In this document: positions 18,801 to 27,086 of the stretch, in pieces | Layout: every line of letters begins with the position of its first letter | Position numbering within the stretch: position 1 is the first letter of the stretch | Virus record (IMG/VR): IMGVR_UViG_2690315992_000010 | DNA from: a virus | Taxonomy: Duplodnaviria; Heunggongvirae; Uroviricota; Caudoviricetes | Direction: 5' to 3' (one strand) | DNA length: 35,687 nt | The notes under the pieces: generated by a model | What the model was told of the DNA's origin: nothing | Seen by the model: the letters and a program-made list of their open reading frames with translations, nothing else | Database searches by the model: none | Position numbers and translations under genes: made by a program

Positions 18801-19229
18801 ATTTTTATTAGCGTTGATGGTATCCGACAATTCAGCTTTAACACCAGCAAGATCGGAAGCAGCTTTATTTTTATTGGCCTCGATTGTCGCGTCGGTTTCG
18901 CGTTTAATTACATCAACTTTATTGTTAATTTCTGCGTGATTTGCTGCGATGGTTGCATCAGTAGTTTGTTTAATTTCATCTACTTTAGCGTGAATATTGC
19001 GGTCGTTTGCTGCAATTGTGCTATCTAATTCTTTCTTGTTAGCATCAACTTTAGATTCTAGTGCCGCGTGAGTTTCAGGAGAAACAGAGATTTGAACTAC
19101 TTCATGATCTCGGTCTTTGGTAAAAATAACATGGTCTTTAAGGTTGATTGCTACCTCACCGACCTGTAATTGTTCCGGCGTTGGTTTTTTGCCAGAAACA
19201 TTAGTTCGTTTAAATTGGATTGATTGCAT
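15804..19229 (-). CDS. long (side) tail fibre with C-terminal intramolecular chaperone / S74 autoproteolytic domain
   Basis: 1141 aa; N-terminal ~33-aa repeat units (DxTIAAN...KVDxIKxxTD); C-terminus ...GRELGVIAQDVEKVMPEAVHV...TISVSSINALFVKAFQEL matches the chaperone domain of endosialidase/L-shaped-fibre type proteins. Confidence 0.8.
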   Translation of the reverse strand: MQSIQFKRTNVSGKKPTPEQLQVGEVAINLKDHVIFTKDRDHEVVQISVSPETHAALESKVDANKKELDSTIAANDRNIHAKVDEIKQTTDATIAANHAEINNKVDVIKRETDATIEANKNKAASDLAGVKAELSDTINANKNAAAVATQELDTRINKKVDDIKSRTDATIASNHKAINDKVDLIKAETDRTIAANQAYAENQLTDTYNNLTGVIAANKQEAADSVAALTRDVEAKNTAIHSKIDNNKVYTDSELARLESRIDAADGSADGKYIKKHVNTYTDGYLLSKTANYFDDPNARNLDYFGAFRMNDLAGHIAMILHVPHPSGVNHARGFEFTYGSNPHATVRTYGYDELGNLSYSHRMYHEGDKPTPAEIGAYSKAEIDRLFQKTLNFGIEGGWFKLGSLTLPQQHGRSAKIRLVGGNGYNVGMNGQANIIELVIRCGNNSPKGVVFNAYYSIWYHEQHFCAIPTDGDNYDLYAYYGAHTGFVLAEYQVSSGGVSLNLLDTPEYLGGEKPVADEIFDALNISSFNNVSNRGTLNFAGNHQGQYDIEHMNEQQTNSKKMLRRFRSSAPATIWHESVDDQNYRLATGYDDVNQQLLLSAATGLHVKRLTLDGGVGNAGIDIRRGPNESSHFNFMDYRTGQDVRNGWFGFGDLTTKDFIWWNDNGQNSINLIEDGELHITGGKGQKIVMNSEVALSENARLAVKGGNYGLMLRNDGSSFHILTTDLKDSFGSWNNRRPFSYDFADGGLYLGGTATARCLHLGIDGSTRLEDNLFFKAGSRQSMDYMELVHWGASNTGRNNVLSLRDSKGFLAEFERLWDNTTKNTFFGKMKINRGSDAIIMNAESGDSSVYLLGTCADNNNWYIGKGGGDNGLAFYSYATNAAINLTNAGDIALSPKGVEMVHVNNARLYVHGERWTASQPGDWGNQWRVEAPIFVDHGYVGQDCYYPIVKARSLITNQGYTTAVDFGMRRIPNNWGQAIIRVGSAENSPDNGHPQAVFEFHHDGFFYTPGNGSFNDVHIRSDERLKINKEELEEGALDKLNSLTVYSYDKVKSLSDDTVVGRELGVIAQDVEKVMPEAVHVCSDGDTENPGEIKTISVSSINALFVKAFQELTTKYDAMNEELKAVKAELAAIKSCK

Positions 19230-19302: not shown

Positions 19303-20136
19303 TCAGTATTCCCCGAAGTCGATCCGGTCATGGATAGAAACGGCTTCAATCTCGGCTGGTGTCGGTTTTTCTTCTGTGGAATACACTTTCACCCATCCCG
19401 AATTACCGTCTTTCTGGACTGTGCGAACTCGTAAACGTGGTGCGCCGGAAGCGGTGCAAGTTAATTGCCATCCACCATCTTCATTAGGTTGAGCGTGAAT
19501 TAGTGAAGTATCAGCACTAAATGGATTAGATGCGCTCGATCCCTGATAGGTCACAAAACGGTTTCCGGTTAATGCTTCGCTATCAATCGGACCAGTGAAT
19601 GGATTTACACCAGCACCCAGACCAAAATCACCCTGACGTAAGATCCGACCTTCGGTTGCAATACCACGATCCAGAATCCCGCCATCAGGTTCTAATTTAA
19701 ACTCGATTGTAGTAACTTTGTTATCGCCGGATTTTGTTTTATGTGACGAGACGAAAGCGTCAAAGATGACGTAGTAACCTGTGTTAGCAGCACTGTAACC
19801 AGAGTTCACAACATAGAACATACGAAAGCGTAAAGGAGTTTTATCATTCACCGCTTTCATCAACATGTCTTGATGTTCGTCATCCAGAACACGGTTTACT
19901 ACTAACGTAGTTGATTCAAGTTTACGATAACCAGAAAGTTTCCCCGTAGCGTCCTGGTCATACTCTTCTAACGTCTGTATCTCTGTAGATTCGGTTATCG
20001 TCGGGAATGCTGCGATGTTCTCGATAGGACTAAATGCAGGATCGAAAAAGTCCGGCTGGTTATCGACCATAGTAGAAACGGAGACTTCAACATGCGACCC
20101 CGTGAAAATGTCTAAGTTATCTTGTGTAATATTCAT
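19303..20136 (-). CDS. virion structural protein (neck/tail; possible tube-like fold with extra C-terminal domain)
   Basis: 277 aa; position between head-tail connector genes and fibre gene; moderate codon bias; shares KPTPAEI motif with the fibre protein. Function uncertain. Confidence 0.35.
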   Translation of the reverse strand: MNITQDNLDIFTGSHVEVSVSTMVDNQPDFFDPAFSPIENIAAFPTITESTEIQTLEEYDQDATGKLSGYRKLESTTLVVNRVLDDEHQDMLMKAVNDKTPLRFRMFYVVNSGYSAANTGYYVIFDAFVSSHKTKSGDNKVTTIEFKLEPDGGILDRGIATEGRILRQGDFGLGAGVNPFTGPIDSEALTGNRFVTYQGSSASNPFSADTSLIHAQPNEDGGWQLTCTASGAPRLRVRTVQKDGNSGWVKVYSTEEKPTPAEIEAVSIHDRIDFGEY

Positions 20137-20145
20137 TATTACCCC

Positions 20146-20568
20146 TTAAAAACGCGCTACATAAGAAAATTTAAGGCTAAGTGTCCCAACGATACCCCCA
20201 TCACTAGAATCATCGTCATAATCGGTATTAGAAGCAACTGGAGTGATATCTGAAATAGAGAAGCCCAAATCTTTAAATCGTGGGTTATCCGGCTGAATCT
20301 GGATTATCTGGCAAATACCCTCATGAATTTTGGTTTCATGATTCTGAGAATACAACTGCATTTCGATAACGCATTCAGCTTGCATTGCATTACCACCACG
20401 AACACGCGTATAAGTCTCATTCATTCCAGTAATCCAACAAACCACGTCATCACTAAAGCCTTGCTGAGTTTGTTCTACGTTTAAAGCCAGACCTAAATCT
20501 TGTTCGATAATATCCTGCAAGGCGCGTTTGATTTTCAGTCTAGGCATATTATTAACGGTAGCGAGCAT
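20146..20568 (-). CDS. head-tail joining / tail terminator-like protein
   Basis: Synteny only. ATG 20568 preceded by GGGGGT RBS; track start 20649 is GTG further upstream. Confidence 0.35.
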   Translation of the reverse strand: MLATVNNMPRLKIKRALQDIIEQDLGLALNVEQTQQGFSDDVVCWITGMNETYTRVRGGNAMQAECVIEMQLYSQNHETKIHEGICQIIQIQPDNPRFKDLGFSISDITPVASNTDYDDDSSDGGIVGTLSLKFSYVARF

Positions 20569-20842
20569 GTGTACCCCCTGCACGAGCAATAAAGCAATCA
20601 GAAGTATTATCACCATTGCGCTTAACGTATTGAACTTTGAAGCGTTCACCGTCTACAATGACAACATCACCCTGATTTAAGTTTCCCTCACGACAAAATA
20701 GAAATTCTGATTCTGTAATTACCCCCTGTTCGTCGGTAGTAGTAATTTCATGGTAAGCACGAATTGATTTACCACCTTCCACCGAAAATACAGGAGCACT
20801 TTTAAACATTCTTGATAATTGTGATTCTGATAATTTGAACAT
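20552..20842 (-). CDS. head-tail connector / head completion protein
   Basis: 96-aa ORF immediately after capsid gene terminator; synteny only. Confidence 0.35.
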   Translation of the reverse strand: MFKLSESQLSRMFKSAPVFSVEGGKSIRAYHEITTTDEQGVITESEFLFCREGNLNQGDVVIVDGERFKVQYVKRNGDNTSDCFIARAGGTHARYR

Positions 20843-20872
20843 AGTTACCCCCTTTATGGAGTATTTACATAC

Positions 20873-20899
20873 AAAAAAGCCCCACCGTTAGGCAGGGCT
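20873..20899 (-). terminator. terminator/attenuator downstream of major capsid gene
   Basis: Minus-strand AGCCC...GGGCT hairpin followed by TTTTTT. Confidence 0.45.
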
Positions 20900-21036
20900 A
20901 ATTATTATTTTGCTTTAGTCTTACGTTCTTTTTTAACTGTGGCTTTCGCCGTAACCGTCTGGGAATCTTCTTCCGGTTCAGGAATCAGATTATCTTCCCC
21001 CAAATCGGGGGAAGGAACAGAAGGTTCTACGTTAGT

Positions 21037-23046
21037 TCATTCAGAGATATGAAGAACTTTCAGAGCTTCCGGCTGGGTTACAACGTAATCCAGATCTACC
21101 CAGATACGCGGAACAATTGCGGACTGTGCACGGTAGGTGGTGTCGTCCATATCCAGTTCCAGACCGCCCCACTCACCGATAGTAATACCGGAGAAGTCAC
21201 CCAGAACGATGTGGTCTGCCGGAATAACACCAGAAGTAACTACTTCGTAACCAGCAATTTTGCCGTTTTCCAGAATGAAGCCTTGAGCGTCACCACGATC
21301 AGATTTCGGGGTAGATTCCAGTTCAGCAGCAGTTGCACCGCTCATTGCAAACTTGATCGCCTGAGCAGGAACGCCAGCGTCGGTCAGTTTAGCAATTTCT
21401 TTCAGGAAGTCTTTGTAGGTGAAAGCAGCTTTCTTCTCAACGCGGCTAGCGTCTACCAGTTGTTTAACCAGACCAGCCGGACCACGATCGTTAGCTTTAT
21501 CAGACAGAATCAGTTGTTCCAGTTTGATACGAACAGCCTGGTTGATGTGATCAGTGATCAGGGTAGCGATACCCGGAACGGTTTTAATGCTCTGACGGCT
21601 GATCGGGTTGCCACCAGCAAAAGTCTTAGGAGACAGTTTCACGTTTGCAAATTCAGCTTTGCCTTCCGGTGCAGCACCGTTTTCATCAACGAAGCCGAAA
21701 GCGTCAACGCTGGATTTAGTCATTTTTGGAATAGCGGTCGGAGCAGTCAAGCCACTGTAAACAGTCACACCCAGACGACCCAGAACGGATTCCGGCATCA
21801 GCATTTCGATGTAGGATTCAGTCATCAGTTTTTCATCGGTGATAGCAGTCAGGTCAGCTTTGGTGTTACCAGCAGCAGCAGCACGCATAGCAGCAGCCGG
21901 AACGAATACAGAGCCACCACGAGCAGCACGACCACGCTGCATAGTTGCAGTAGCAGCCATTGCAGAAAACTCGGCTTCGTTAGCACCCAGAGCTTCACCA
22001 TCTACCAGAGAGCGAATTACGTTGTTCAGGTCAAAAGTTTTTTCCATTTTAGAGTCCTTAATTTGTTGTTCGTTATTACGTTGAGCATTGACGAGATTAT
22101 TTAGTGCCTTAGTGCGGAATGCTTCCGGCGTCATGTCTTTAATTGCCAATGCGCGTTTTAATTCTTCGTCGTCAATATTTAGTTCCCGCGCGATCTCGCG
22201 GATTTCTAATTCGTCTTCTTCGGAACGTTCAGCCACTTCCTCGGTTTTTTCTTCTTCAACCGGAACGGCTTCACGTTCTTCTTTTACTTCTTCTGTTTCC
22301 CGAACAGTTGAACTATCATCATCAACACTTTCAGGATGTTCAGCGTCTTTTCCGTCTTCGAGATTTTCATCTTCTTTATTCTCTTCAACTTGGCGCTCTT
22401 GAGTTTCTTCAACTTCCGATTCTTTATTTTCTTCTACCGGAGTTTCTTCAACCTGAGCGGGTTCTTGTTCTTCTTTGATTTCTTCGATTTGTTCTTTAGT
22501 CATATCGCGTTTAGCCTCCAAATTAACTGTGATAGTATTTAGAGAGCGATTTAAACCGACCGAATCGTCCGCCGGGACCGTAACAAAACTTAATTCGAAA
22601 GGAACAAACTTAGTAACAATCAATTGTCCTTTGGCATAATCGATGTGATATTCTTTAATGTCATAACCGACAGAAATTTTTTCCATCGTACCTTCAATGA
22701 CTTTATTACGAATATCATTAGCCAAAGTGCCATGCTTAGAGAATCTAACGGTCGCACGGCCTACTTTATCCGCATCGATTCGAGCGTTACAAACGACACC
22801 TAAATGATTATCGAAATTATGATTAAACAGCAACGGAGCGTTATTATTCAGACGAGACAGATCAACCGCTTCCGGTGTATGTACCAGAATTTCATCTAAT
22901 ACCACCATTTCTTGATTTTGCTCATCCCAGAATTGGCGCTGATAAGGCTGTTCACTGGAGAAAGCAATTTCAAATTCGTATTGATCGTTATGCCCTTCGT
23001 TAATAACTCCACCGTAACCGTTAAGTTCGCGGCGAAATTTAAGCAT
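21037..23046 (-). CDS. prohead protease - acidic scaffold-like linker - major capsid protein (single in-frame ORF)
   Basis: N-terminal ~170 aa has prohead serine protease-like motifs (LLFNHNFDNHLGVV, ISVGYD, FELSFVTVPADD); ~150-aa Glu/Lys-rich linker; C-terminal ~336 aa strongly codon-optimised capsid-like domain. Internal ATG near 22047 with AAGGA RBS. Confidence 0.75.
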   Translation of the reverse strand: MLKFRRELNGYGGVINEGHNDQYEFEIAFSSEQPYQRQFWDEQNQEMVVLDEILVHTPEAVDLSRLNNNAPLLFNHNFDNHLGVVCNARIDADKVGRATVRFSKHGTLANDIRNKVIEGTMEKISVGYDIKEYHIDYAKGQLIVTKFVPFELSFVTVPADDSVGLNRSLNTITVNLEAKRDMTKEQIEEIKEEQEPAQVEETPVEENKESEVEETQERQVEENKEDENLEDGKDAEHPESVDDDSSTVRETEEVKEEREAVPVEEEKTEEVAERSEEDELEIREIARELNIDDEELKRALAIKDMTPEAFRTKALNNLVNAQRNNEQQIKDSKMEKTFDLNNVIRSLVDGEALGANEAEFSAMAATATMQRGRAARGGSVFVPAAAMRAAAAGNTKADLTAITDEKLMTESYIEMLMPESVLGRLGVTVYSGLTAPTAIPKMTKSSVDAFGFVDENGAAPEGKAEFANVKLSPKTFAGGNPISRQSIKTVPGIATLITDHINQAVRIKLEQLILSDKANDRGPAGLVKQLVDASRVEKKAAFTYKDFLKEIAKLTDAGVPAQAIKFAMSGATAAELESTPKSDRGDAQGFILENGKIAGYEVVTSGVIPADHIVLGDFSGITIGEWGGLELDMDDTTYRAQSAIVPRIWVDLDYVVTQPEALKVLHISE

Positions 23047-23092
23047 TTAATCACCTTTAATTAATTGGGGGCATTGCGCCCCCCGTTGGTTA

Positions 23093-24604
23093 TTAGGGAT
23101 CGGCTGGGGAATTTTTTTCTTCACCCTCGCCATCAACGATAATATTTAGTGCGCTTTTTTCGGCTTGAATCTCTGAGAATACTTTTTCAGGATCATCACC
23201 ACGTTCCAATATAACGGCAGTACGTGATTTAAGTCCGTTATCAATTAAAGCAATCTCGGCGCTTACGTCTTTAAATGGATCGACGGATTCAAAACGCGGA
23301 CGAATAATAGTAGTGTTATCGATAATATGCGGAATTGCAGTAATACGAATCGGAACAATACCACGCGCGGAATAATGGCGTAGATATGCTTCAAAAATTG
23401 GCAATACCACTGTTTCAATTAATTTGTTTTGCAGTGCTTTAACTCGTGTGCGTTGAAGCAATTCGCCGTAGCGGGCTGCGCTGTAGTTGATCTGGCTGGT
23501 ATCACCAGTTAAGCCCTGTTTAAACACGCCTAAGCCCATTGATACGCTAGTAAACATCGCATCATTGAAGCTGTTAAAGTCATCGCCACTTTGGGCGCTC
23601 TGAATTGACTTAATCGTTGCCCCTTCCGGCAATTCCTGAATAGTACCCGGTGCAAAGTCCTGTACTACTTCCGGCGCTTGATATTGTTCATCCTCTTCAC
23701 CAGTATCAAAATCGTCACCAGAATCTTTCGGACGTTCGATAAAGCCCATAGAGCTAGCTGCAATGCGTTTCTGGATGATCGCAGTTTCGCGGAATGCATC
23801 TTGATGTGCGATATCCTTAATCACTGGCAGGAAGTCAGTCACACCACGCAGGGATTCGGCGGTAAGCGGTTGATAATAATGGCATACTTGCGAAGCATCG
23901 ACGCGATAGTTATCACCAGTGTAGGTCTGAGTCAGTAGGTTGACTTTACGAAACCAGTATGCCACGGGCTTCATCGTTTCTACGGCATACTCCACACCTT
24001 GATATATCGCACGTTCTTTGCTCACTTCACGGTTGAGAGTCCAGTCGCACTTATCAGCAGACAGGATAGAAACATTTATCTCATTGTTTTCTTTAGTTAA
24101 AACGATGAAACACTCACCACCCATAACGCGCTCACGTTCAGCCATTACCAGCAATTCACGGAAGTTAAAGCGACCGTTACGAGAGAAGCGTTTAGCATTC
24201 TGCGCCCACTTCCAGAAAGCATTCTCGATCTGCTTATTCAGTGCGCTATCAAGTTTGCCATTTGATTTAACGATTGACGGCTTCGGATCTAGGCCAGTAC
24301 CTACCACCATATCGGTGATGTATTGCGTGTATCGACTGCCTACGGAAGTGTTTAAGGCCAGAGTACGCCCCTGATCATAAAGGCGCTTACCGTTCGATTT
24401 GAGAGCCTTATTGAAGGTTCCGGTAATGGTGTCTTGTTGAAGCTGTCCATCAATGCGATCACCAACCAGACCTAAACTACGAGTCGCCAGAGATTTCTGG
24501 AATTTTTCTACTTGTTTGTCGATGAAAATTTTTGGTTGTTGTTGGCGGTGATTAGTTTTAACTGGAGTTTCTACCGCCTTTTTGCGTCGAAAAAGATTAA
24601 ACAT
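23093..24604 (-). CDS. portal protein
   Basis: 503 aa, located between terminase and capsid genes; acidic C-terminus; portal-like QINYSAARYGEL segment. Confidence 0.75.
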   Translation of the reverse strand: MFNLFRRKKAVETPVKTNHRQQQPKIFIDKQVEKFQKSLATRSLGLVGDRIDGQLQQDTITGTFNKALKSNGKRLYDQGRTLALNTSVGSRYTQYITDMVVGTGLDPKPSIVKSNGKLDSALNKQIENAFWKWAQNAKRFSRNGRFNFRELLVMAERERVMGGECFIVLTKENNEINVSILSADKCDWTLNREVSKERAIYQGVEYAVETMKPVAYWFRKVNLLTQTYTGDNYRVDASQVCHYYQPLTAESLRGVTDFLPVIKDIAHQDAFRETAIIQKRIAASSMGFIERPKDSGDDFDTGEEDEQYQAPEVVQDFAPGTIQELPEGATIKSIQSAQSGDDFNSFNDAMFTSVSMGLGVFKQGLTGDTSQINYSAARYGELLQRTRVKALQNKLIETVVLPIFEAYLRHYSARGIVPIRITAIPHIIDNTTIIRPRFESVDPFKDVSAEIALIDNGLKSRTAVILERGDDPEKVFSEIQAEKSALNIIVDGEGEEKNSPADP

Positions 24605-25181: not shown

Positions 25182-27086
25182 TTAGAACGATGTTACCCAG
25201 CTACGGCCTCTATTTGGGCGTCTGGCGATGTTTTTACGTTGTGGTCGTGTGATTGGCTTATTTTCTTCGATTTGCTCGTCAGATTGCGATTTAGGAGCTT
25301 CTACGGATTCTTCTGGTTCACGGTTCAAACTATCTTTGATGGCTTCGAGTTTTTCCCATGACATTTTATTGAGTACATGGCGATAACTAGCCACCGCATA
25401 GGTTAGGCAGTCCAAGCCCTCGTTGCGTTGCTGACCAACTTTTACCCAACGTGTGGTATTACCCTGCCGTTTCAACTGTTCAGATAGCAATTGCTCGCAG
25501 TAGTCATCAGGAACGTCACCAATCTGGAAGACCGTATGAGGATCGCTGTCTCTCAAGTTCCGGTTAATCATTTCACGGATCATCGTCTTAAGGTTGTTTA
25601 CGCCCAGAATTTTAAGGGTAAAACCGCCCGTTCTTGTGTCTTTTACCGGAAGGATTGGAGCATCAACATTACTTGCGCCCTTAATGGCGCATAGATTTTG
25701 CCACCTAGTGCAAAAGCGGTAGATCACTTGCGTAGCTCGTCCGTTTGATGAGTCCACGAAAGCGGATAGCATCGGGATTCGTTGACCGGATCGGGTATAG
25801 AATTTTGCTTTCAGGAAGTTGTAAAGCTGGTCATATGCTGGTGATTCGTGGCGTTCGCAGTTCACATCATAGAATGATCGGTGATCAACTACGCATATCC
25901 CTTTACGAGAGATACCCAGCAAGGTAGATTCCAGACGGTCTTTTTGCTGGTCAACTCCACCTACCAGAGCCAAAACATCATCAGGAATATTATCTAAGCT
26001 AATGTCAGTTTTCAGCGTTTCCAGTTCGTCGGCTGTGCGGTCTTCGTTAAGATCATCGAAGGTTTCACCGAGCACCACATTATAGAACGTTGCCAGCGAC
26101 ATATTCGCGTAGCTATCAGCAAAGTCCACCACACACGCACGGATAGAACTAAACGGAGACATAAGGCGGTTAGCATGAAAACCGATTACTTCCGCATTTG
26201 GTTCGGTGGCGACCCATTCTCCCTGAGCAACAGCACGGAGGCGATCTGGTTCTGACCAATCAGTTTCACATGACGGGCAACGGTAAACGGCTGTGTCTGG
26301 ATTCGGCAGTGATTTACCATTGATTACATGCCAATCAAAGAATACTCTACTCCATTCCATTACGTGTTTGTGTCCGCAATGCTGGCAAACGACGTGGTAT
26401 TTTCTTTTATCCGAGAGTTCCCATTGTTGGTTTATCGCCCCATCCCGCGAAGTTGGAGTAGAAGCAATTACGATCCTTGCATCATCACCGAAAGTGGTTG
26501 CGCGTTGTTCCGCTAGCTGGATCGGGTTCCCTTCGTCTGACTCATCAGCCGCATCAACTTCATCAAGAATAATCAAAGGTAGTGTTTTACCGCGAAGATG
26601 TGATGGACTATTCAACGACATGAAATACATGAATGATCCGTTACGAAGCTGAATAATCGATGAGTTGTTAACGGCATTGCGATCTGACTTGTCGGTGATC
26701 ATCGCCTTTAATTCTGGGGTTGCCTCTAATACTGGCTTCACCTTACCCGCGATCCAGCTATTCAACTCGCGGACGTTTGCTTGCAAAACACCTATATTAG
26801 TGGGGTTGCTGGCGATCCTATGAAAGATAATACCGTTTAGCACAAGAGTTTTACCCAACTGCGCCGAGCACTTTAGCACAATTTTTCGCCTATCTTCGGT
26901 GATCGCGTCCATCATCCCACGTTGGAAAGGATGCAATTTAATTAGCGATCCGGCTTTAACACCATCGGTTGCAACTACATTAGCCTCTACCCATTCGCTA
27001 GGTTTCATGGCTTTAGGTGGGCGAATTGCAGCAGAGATATTTCTGAGAATCTTTTTTAATTTTGCCTTATTAGAAATCAGTTTCAT
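25182..27086 (-). CDS. terminase large subunit (GpA family)
   Basis: 634 aa; Walker A-like KCSAQLGKT, IASTPT motif, Cys-rich zinc-finger-like segment (CQHCGH...CPSC), size similar to lambda gpA; GAGGGTAA RBS before ATG 27086. Confidence 0.8.
   Translation of the reverse strand: MKLISNKAKLKKILRNISAAIRPPKAMKPSEWVEANVVATDGVKAGSLIKLHPFQRGMMDAITEDRRKIVLKCSAQLGKTLVLNGIIFHRIASNPTNIGVLQANVRELNSWIAGKVKPVLEATPELKAMITDKSDRNAVNNSSIIQLRNGSFMYFMSLNSPSHLRGKTLPLIILDEVDAADESDEGNPIQLAEQRATTFGDDARIVIASTPTSRDGAINQQWELSDKRKYHVVCQHCGHKHVMEWSRVFFDWHVINGKSLPNPDTAVYRCPSCETDWSEPDRLRAVAQGEWVATEPNAEVIGFHANRLMSPFSSIRACVVDFADSYANMSLATFYNVVLGETFDDLNEDRTADELETLKTDISLDNIPDDVLALVGGVDQQKDRLESTLLGISRKGICVVDHRSFYDVNCERHESPAYDQLYNFLKAKFYTRSGQRIPMLSAFVDSSNGRATQVIYRFCTRWQNLCAIKGASNVDAPILPVKDTRTGGFTLKILGVNNLKTMIREMINRNLRDSDPHTVFQIGDVPDDYCEQLLSEQLKRQGNTTRWVKVGQQRNEGLDCLTYAVASYRHVLNKMSWEKLEAIKDSLNREPEESVEAPKSQSDEQIEENKPITRPQRKNIARRPNRGRSWVTSF

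Follow-up and report, generated by a model that had tools for sequence, protein, structure and literature searches.

The stretch of DNA analysed here, 35,687 nucleotides of a tailed virus (Caudoviricetes; IMG/VR record IMGVR_UViG_2690315992_000010; hereafter the window), is an Escherichia coli prophage that carries on its minus strand a single open reading frame (ORF) encoding a prohead protease fused to a capsid protein. The questions addressed are from which start codons this fused gene may be translated and what the coat precursor would be, considering two signals inside the frame that combine a Shine-Dalgarno (SD) motif with an ATG. The ORF, its parts, and its start signals are listed below; residues are counted from the first ATG, pLDDT is the predicted local distance difference test score of AlphaFold2, and CAI is the codon adaptation index for E. 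coli.

21037..23046, minus strand: full ORF, 669 amino acids, 74.0 kDa; S78 protease, acidic linker, helical segment, propeptide, and HK97-fold capsid protein
23051..23055, minus strand: SD-like GGTGA, 4 nucleotides before the first ATG; pairing energy -4.3 kcal/mol, the weakest of the window's head genes
22543..22986, minus strand: prohead protease domain, residues ~21-168; Peptidase_S78; pLDDT >90; CAI ~0.31
22501..22519, minus strand: internal start signal at the protease/linker boundary; GGAGG (22519-22515), 11-nucleotide spacer, ATG (22503-22501), Met182
22222..22503, minus strand: acidic linker, residues 182-275; 43% Asp+Glu; predicted disordered, pLDDT <50
22048..22221, minus strand: helical scaffold-like segment, residues 276-333; helices 276-288, 293-301, and 307-336
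22045..22059, minus strand: internal start signal; AAGGA (22059-22055), 7-nucleotide spacer CTCTAAA, ATG (22047-22045), Met334 (MEKTFDLNN)
21856..22047, minus strand: predicted propeptide of the short product, residues 334-397, 64 amino acids; helices 340-349, 355-370, and 384-391; strand 380-382
21040..21855, minus strand: predicted mature HK97-fold capsid protein, residues ~398-669, 272 amino acids, 29.1 kDa; CAI ~0.76

The frame opens with the ATG at 23046-23044 and closes with the stop codon at 21037-21039. As the initial annotation of this DNA stated, it is uninterrupted: no stop codon breaks it in the window, in 44 complete E. coli genomes, or in 13 alleles. PHROG 617 (major head protein) aligns with the ORF from end to end, and PHROG 4523 (major head and protease protein) also matches it. 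The gene order runs from terminase gpA (25182-27086) through a head-tail joining protein and a lambda-family portal (23093-24604) to the fused ORF and a Phage_attach-like protein; given these lambda-type neighbors, the fused ORF occupies the place of lambda C, Nu3, D, and E. Identical copies of the protein, named "phage major capsid protein [Escherichia coli]", are encoded on 49 contigs, and the ORF was found in 49 of 5426 complete E. coli genomes at 86-95% nucleotide identity, chromosomal every time. A near-identity DNA search of phage genomes gave no match to the element. The protein family is large, with 2152 homologues at E ≤ 1e-20 and 3033 cluster representatives.

The union of a protease-like domain, an acidic linker, and a capsid protein in one ORF, read initially from the translation, is borne out by Pfam, PHROG, and the composition of residues 182-275. 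Peptidase_S78 matches residues 40-162 (E = 2e-10; 41.5 bits against a gathering cut-off of 21), and Phage_capsid (PF05065) matches residues 410-666 (E = 5e-24; 85.6 bits against a cut-off of 24.2). His76 and Ser125, each at least 90% conserved and hence nearly invariant across 97 family representatives, are the putative catalytic residues by comparison with HK97 gp4. An AlphaFold2 model built on these 97 diverse representatives (mean pLDDT 82) comprises the protease at 21-168 (pLDDT >90), a disordered region at 170-270, a confident helical domain at 276-391, a low-confidence stretch at 399-407, and the HK97 fold at 408-669 (pLDDT >90). The segment 276-333 bears a family-conserved E..R..EI..I motif, has the poorest CAI of the ORF (~0.2), and is A-rich just 5' of the internal start at Met334.

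The maturation of the coat may be read from a relative of known structure. In a Foldseek comparison, the HK97-fold part matched best the capsid protein of roseophage R4C (8GTA; E = 9e-19, TM-score on the target (TMt) 0.72), followed by capsids of a gene transfer agent, D3, and HK97; a PDB sequence search with residues 1-333 gave no match. The 8GTA chain (268 amino acids) corresponds exactly to residues 362-629 of the 629-residue fused R4C precursor, and therefore the counterpart of window residues 334-397 is absent from the deposited mature coat. Homology to 8GTA, together with the low-pLDDT stretch at 399-407, probably puts the mature N-terminus near residue 398, and by the same relation to R4C the virion coat of the window phage would consist of the C-terminal part only. 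The short product, initially called capsid-only, is consequently misnamed: the Met334 product would be a precursor retaining a conserved 64-residue helical propeptide, probably cleaved near residue 398. Calculated masses are 74.0 kDa from Met1, 53.3 kDa from Met182 (a linker-capsid protein of 488 amino acids), 35.6 kDa from Met334 (336 amino acids), and ~29.1 kDa for the mature coat.

Codon usage divides the ORF sharply at the second of the internal signals. The CAI rises from 0.344 in codons 1-333 to 0.755 in codons 334-669, and codons with a relative adaptiveness (w) below 0.1 make up 20.8% of the former and 1.5% of the latter, so that the stronger optimization of the capsid part noticed at the outset is confirmed. 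The least-squares change point is codon 331, inside the AAGGA and three codons from Met334; its gain in the sum of squared errors (SSE) was 103.8, against a maximum of 39.3 in 2000 within-amino-acid synonymous shuffles (0/2000 reaching the observed value). A host-independent segmentation of codon usage also broke at codon 331 (z = 10.7); applied to the high-GC or marine phages R4C, Mano, Alexa, phiHAP-1, and FoX5, it gave no significant break. CTG serves for 4 of 22 Leu residues before the step and for 24 of 26 after it, AAC for 6 of 25 Asn residues and then for 10 of 10; after the step Ala is GCT in 36 of 47 cases and neither GGA nor GGG is used, which is the classic pattern of E. coli genes with high expression. 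The lowest adaptation in the ORF is that of codons 271-333 (CAI ~0.2), and a fit with two change points found no CAI rise at codon 182.

Of the other structural genes in the window, only one is highly adapted, 15245-15715 (CAI 0.637), the major tail (tube) protein according to Pfam and PHROG; the portal, the terminase, the tail fibre, and the protease part of the fused ORF range from 0.27 to 0.37. Since the one other structural gene of high CAI encodes the other high-copy component of the virion, CAI tracks virion copy number in this prophage. Ribosomes reading the whole ORF would expose both halves to equal translational selection, and the step therefore argues that most ribosomes translate the 3' half only. 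The same boundary is marked independently on the opposite strand, where an antisense ORF of 351 amino acids (21049-22104, plus strand) runs in phase with the capsid codons. This ORF is open because sense TTA, CTA, and TCA are absent from codons 316-669, the last of them being the CTA of codon 315; it is a by-product of the codon bias and not a gene.

The region of the tube gene has an unusual composition of its own. Two homologues of PHROG 158 (major tail protein), of 156 and 277 amino acids, lie on the minus strand (15245-15715 and 19303-20136), and between them is a tail-fibre gene (15804-19229, 1141 amino acids) whose product combines the trimerisation domain of T4 gp34 with an S74 chaperone domain. 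Other alleles instead have a GIY-YIG nuclease gene after the 277-residue gene.

The AAGGA and the ATG at about 22047, residue 334, are present as initially described, separated by 7 nucleotides. At Met334, SD pairing is exactly as strong as at the major tail gene (-5.8 kcal/mol), compared with -9.3 at Met182 and -4.3 at Met1. The minimum free energy of the mRNA from -25 to +25 is -0.9 kcal/mol around Met334, -3.1 around Met182, and -5.3 around Met1, and the Met334 initiation region is among the least structured 2.4% of 50-nucleotide windows in the ORF mRNA. A sigma-70 promoter scan gave no site upstream of Met334 and a total count equal to the shuffle expectation, and Rfam gave no match at E ≤ 1 over 20700-23300; with neither a promoter-like site nor an Rfam element before Met334, alternative initiation on one mRNA is the simplest mechanism. 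By itself, the combination of an SD with an ATG is not beyond chance; what is non-random is its coincidence with the codon step, its invariance among alleles, and its recurrence in distant relatives. As a separate observation on such signals, the strongest "internal" SDs of the window belong to ATGs at residue 28 (GGGGG) and residue 29 (GGAGG) of the minus-strand genes 20146-20649 and 9464-9967, respectively; these ATGs are likely the true starts, the longest-ORF calls probably beginning too far upstream.

The invariance was assessed with 13 E. coli alleles, namely the window and 12 further ones. The ATG, the AAGGA, and the 7-nucleotide spacing are identical in 13/13, and the intervening codons differ by haplotype, AAG GAC TCT AAA ATG (KDSK) in one and AAG GAA CAA ATC ATG (KEQI) in the other. 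The CAI change point falls within a few codons of the MEKTF Met in nine of the 13 alleles and at 320-356 in three more, and the CAI of the capsid part is held between 0.61 and 0.76 in all of them. A sliding-window scan of synonymous diversity across the 13 alleles, made to see whether diversity drops at the internal starts, gave no information on this point, the pattern being dominated by mosaic recombination. Within that scan, linker residues 185-270 (22236-22491) showed a synonymous diversity of 0-0.03 compared with 0.1-0.3 in the flanks, suggesting a recent sweep, gene conversion of the segment, or a constraint at the nucleotide level.

Recurrence was examined in 117 further loci retrieved by scanning viral and genome collections, and 79 complete related ORFs were tested with an SD threshold of ≤ -4.5 kcal/mol. 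An in-frame SD and ATG within the 27 codons before the capsid module was present in 36 of these 79, against a background of 0.0014 per codon elsewhere, or ~0.04 expected per ORF. In a clade 29-36% identical to the window protein, whose hosts include Leclercia, Rouxiella, Phytobacter, Mangrovibacter, and Escherichia sp., the arrangement AAGGA, 7-13 nucleotides, and ATG GAA (x) TTT TCT, encoding ME(x)FSL, was found in 16/16 distinct initiation regions. The Lys codon within the SD is AAG in all 16, compared with 27% of the Lys codons in those ORFs. Across the 97 representatives (50%-identity clusters), K[DE]x3-5M occupies the junction in ~20, and the rest have a G[LM][ST]xxE linker. The CAI step is close to the Met of the capsid module in a Leclercia locus (308 vs 303) and in loci L041 (296 vs 301) and L047 (303 vs 309).

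Relatives without the fusion add a further comparison. A profile-free search with residues 334-669 against 1.84 billion cluster representatives returned three size classes: fused proteins of ~600-700 amino acids, delta/scaffold-coat proteins of ~400-445, and stand-alone coats of ~320-350. Many matches were homologous from query residue 1-5; P0255 (320 amino acids) starts exactly at the aligned position, and P0151 and P0235 have an internal MEK[KR]FSL. In contig L144, the stop codon of an S78 protease gene with a Pro/Glu-rich tail is a TAA located within the SD TAAGGAGA, and a coat gene of 345 amino acids begins with an ATG 7 nucleotides after TAAGGAGA in the same reading frame; one stop codon is thus essentially all that distinguishes the fused form from the split one. 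The internal SD and ATG of the window match the position of a genuine gene start in L144. Helices equivalent to 276-333 are lacking between the protease and the coat protein of L144, suggesting that the propeptide alone may suffice.

A single internal start had been proposed initially. Met334 stands, but not as the sole site, since Met182 with its GGAGG had been overlooked and is the start found family-wide. An SD and ATG 10-30 codons after the protease domain occur in 12/12 fused genes of named phages (the window, DCP80, ep3, Arya, R4C, Mano, Alexa, RcCronus, Persinger, phiHAP-1, FoX5, and VP882). In DCP80, the CAI steps from 0.30 to 0.66 at codon 181, beside Met180; in DCP80-like loci the steps at 180, 193, 192, and 202 accompany Mets 183, 192, 191, and 204, and in Jilinvirus a step at 218-233 lies near Met215-217. 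The family norm thus appears, on these sequences, to be a nesting of the lambda C/Nu3 kind that would give a scaffold-coat protein, and the window lineage keeps this signal, with its codon step at Met334. The DCP80 record itself (L001, PQ671644.1) is peculiar: it is 141 kb long, is filed under Tevenvirinae (Gaprivervirus), and begins with a lambda-type terminase, portal, and fused protease-capsid gene, and it may be a chimeric assembly of two phages.

Several observations weigh against Met334 as the principal start. The AAGGA is a moderate SD, with Met334 in 13th place when the 180 internal in-frame ATGs of the window are ordered by pairing energy, and most of the family has its internal start at the protease/linker boundary, where Met182 has the stronger SD. 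The internal start precedes the capsid domain, as the initial annotation stated, but does not fall in a linker: the predicted helix 307-336, part of the confident helical domain 276-391, has Met334 at its C-terminal end, and the short product would therefore lack helices 276-333 with their family-conserved motif. The ORF is also mosaic, the protease module being swapped at about residue 185 and the acidic linker nearly invariant, and therefore different histories of the segments could contribute to the codon-usage contrast. In several enterobacterial relatives with a capsid-module Met, the best single CAI change point is near the end of the protease; the single-change-point scan of relatives with this Met gave mixed positions and lends partial support. 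The CAI weights follow the E. coli table of Sharp and Li (1987), and the host-free test agrees with them. As regards the mosaicism, the recombination junction lies at ~22490-22500 (ORF nucleotide ~553, residue ~185), at the protease/linker boundary beside Met182. Some E. coli alleles (L002, L003, and L005) have a different protease module, and their internal signal at this place reads GGAGAAAAAAAC-GTG.

These points give room to other explanations of the same sequence. The ORF could yield the 74-kDa polyprotein only, with no internal initiation, the codon contrast being historical (a well-expressed coat module joined to a poorly adapted protease-linker) and the SD and ATG a relic or a coincidence. 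This is unlikely, even though the exchange of the protease module at ~185 and the almost absent diversity of the linker fit a patchwork origin, the split relatives make a fusion event plausible, and an SD with an ATG as strong as this arises by chance about once per ORF of such size. A relic should decay, yet the signal (AAGGA, spacing, and ATG) is unchanged among alleles that diverge by up to 12-14%, in both peptide haplotypes, and in a clade only ~30% identical, in which the minority AAG codon is used 16 times out of 16. The maintenance of the capsid CAI in all 13 alleles and the recurrence of the low-protease/high-capsid CAI pattern in independent lineages speak against a historical accident as well. 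Moreover, by a rough, uncomputed estimate, 415 copies of a 45-kDa internal moiety would amount to ~18 MDa, which exceeds the scaffold load of HK97 or P22 several-fold and would fill most of the cavity of a T=7 procapsid.

Alternatively, Met182 could be the sole functional internal start, giving an abundant linker-scaffold-capsid protein with a gp5-like delta domain besides a minor full-length product, and Met334 would be unused. The ubiquity of this start in the 12 named-phage genes speaks for it, as does the codon step, which falls exactly there in DCP80, L033, L035, L036, and L040 and close to it in Jilinvirus and Persinger; in addition, no other true internal ATG of the window has an SD as strong as that of Met182, the initiation region of Met182 is weakly structured, and the Met182 product would keep the whole predicted helical domain. 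For the window this explanation is nevertheless improbable, considering that the step is at 331 and not at 182, that the codons just before Met334 (271-333) are the worst adapted, and that two change points bring out no rise at 182. The 11-nucleotide spacing of GGAGG and ATG is long, the motif is GGGGG in three alleles, and the context is that of a GTG in alleles with the other protease module; the invariance of AAGGA-N7-ATG, and its recurrence in a clade lacking a start at the protease/linker boundary, would also go unexplained. Finally, the AAGGA might not serve a start at all and could be an SD-like pause, or part of an A-rich zone of rare codons slowing the ribosome so that the protease and scaffold fold first. 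A cluster of rare codons (CTA, AAT x4, CTC, GTC, CAA x4) does occupy codons 315-330, directly before the AAGGA and near a domain transition; the permanent codon-adaptation step over the next 336 codons, the invariant ATG at a fixed spacing, and the stand-alone and split capsid genes starting at this point are all left unexplained, making a pause site very improbable.

Nested expression with Met334 as the main start, the reading also proposed in the initial annotation, is supported by the codon step, the conservation of the start, the split relative, the unstructured initiation region, and the weak SD at the ORF start, and on this comparative evidence we give it a probability of about 0.72: a minor full-length protease-scaffold-capsid product would be accompanied by a major 36-kDa capsid precursor. 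We infer the use of the internal site, the relative abundances, the co-assembly, and the cleavage site in the following scheme. One mRNA would be read in one frame into nested products with a common C-terminus. The weak first start (GGTGA-ATG, 23046) would supply a low-abundance 74-kDa protease-linker-scaffold-capsid polyprotein, and AAGGA-N7-ATG (22047, Met334) the bulk of the coat subunits as a 36-kDa precursor consisting of the 64-residue helical propeptide and the HK97-fold domain; GGAGG-N11-ATG (22503, Met182) may give a third product of 53 kDa. All products would co-assemble via the common capsid domain, so that a few full-length subunits would bring the protease and the acidic scaffold inside the procapsid, tethered to the shell, and the relative strength of the start sites would set the ratio of protease to coat. 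After assembly, the S78 protease would trim all subunits N-terminal of ~398 to the ~29-kDa mature coat.

A more elaborate form of this scheme is put forward tentatively. It has three graded nested starts, with Met1 giving few protease-scaffold-coat chains, Met182 an intermediate number of scaffold-coat chains, and Met334 the most numerous propeptide-coat chains; the stoichiometry would follow from start strength alone, with protease and scaffold attached covalently to shell subunits as extensions. Lineages would then shift the main internal start between domain boundaries and interconvert with split forms through one stop codon.

Two further elements flank the ORF.

23067..23083, minus strand: G+C hairpin GGGGGCGCAATGCCCCC, after the portal stop codon and before the start of the ORF; kept in 13/13 alleles
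20878..20899, minus strand: terminator-like hairpin with a T-run, in the ~190-nucleotide spacer 3' of the ORF

The hairpin GGGGGCGCAATGCCCCC is kept even in alleles with a different downstream protease module and ribosome-binding site, and its version in the window has no T-run; it could act in RNA processing, in RNA stability, or as an attenuator. The non-coding spacer after the capsid ORF (20843-21036, ~190 nucleotides) is unusually long, and the terminator-like hairpin in it (20899-20878) might attenuate transcription into the head-tail joining genes.

Fusions of this type have precedents. Gifsy-2 reportedly has its protease, scaffold, and coat protein fused in a single gene, and the window resembles it in a lambdoid head module in which a protease, a central scaffold-like region, and an HK97-fold coat share one ORF after a lambda-type terminase and portal; the Gifsy-2 protease is said to be ClpP-like, whereas that of the window is a Peptidase_S78. 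The S78-linker-HK97 arrangement is shared with Cronusvirus (R4C, RcCronus), Jilinvirus (ep3, Arya, PT1), Hapunavirus (VP882, phiHAP-1), Mano, Persinger, FoX, and DCP80. Protease-capsid fusion genes have also been described in phages of Microbacterium, Arthrobacter, and Gordonia, and these actinophage "capsid and protease fusion" genes and the named-phage genes are 27-43% identical to the window protein. The named fused genes have one internal SD and ATG, at the protease/linker boundary, whereas the window lineage adds a start at the boundary of the capsid module, the main one by codon usage.

Nested translation is likewise known for head genes. For HFTV1 gp17/gp17.5, nested protease/scaffold translation was shown by ribosome profiling (Ribo-seq) and mass spectrometry, in a paper that also cites lambda and HSV-1. 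The window shares with lambda C/Nu3, HSV-1 UL26/UL26.5, and HFTV1 gp17/gp17.5 in-frame internal start signals inside a protease ORF and a common C-terminus. In those three systems the long product contains the protease, and the truncated product is more abundant and has a shell-targeting C-terminus; abundance in the window is gauged by the codon step as a proxy. They differ from the window in that their shared C-terminal part is the scaffold and the coat gene is separate, whereas the shared part here is the coat itself, so the protease would arrive as a covalent extension of a shell subunit. The short product of HSV-1 is made from an internal promoter, and none was seen before Met334. HK97 gp4/gp5 likewise has an S78 protease, the HK97 fold, and an N-terminal assembly domain of the coat that the protease removes; HK97, however, uses two genes, recruits its protease non-covalently, and has a delta domain of 103 residues, compared with one ORF and a 64-residue propeptide in the window. 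An analogy without homology is offered by Gag/Gag-Pol of retroviruses and totiviruses, in which a minority of shell subunits carry a fused enzyme and a translational choice sets the ratio; the enzyme there is C-terminal and obtained by frameshifting or readthrough, whereas that of the window is N-terminal and would depend on alternative initiation.

A literature search of incomplete coverage found no report of internal initiation within a fused protease-coat gene; the R4C structure paper makes no mention of a protease or of cleavage, and a preprint with a dendrogram of actinophage capsids makes none of fusions. The fusion and the nesting of protease and scaffold are thus both known, and a nesting that reaches the capsid module appears to be undescribed.

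Ever since fused protease-scaffold-coat genes were noticed, it has been a question how they can build a shell. With a 45-kDa internal moiety on every subunit, the procapsid would probably be overfilled and contain hundreds of proteases, a difficulty that internal initiation would resolve. If the nested reading is true, the scheme known from lambda, herpesviruses, and HFTV1 would extend to the coat protein itself, in a family of thousands. Since these genes carry the annotation of a single "major capsid protein", the databases would then lack the true main product and its start, and expression constructs for capsids or nanocages should begin at the internal Met.

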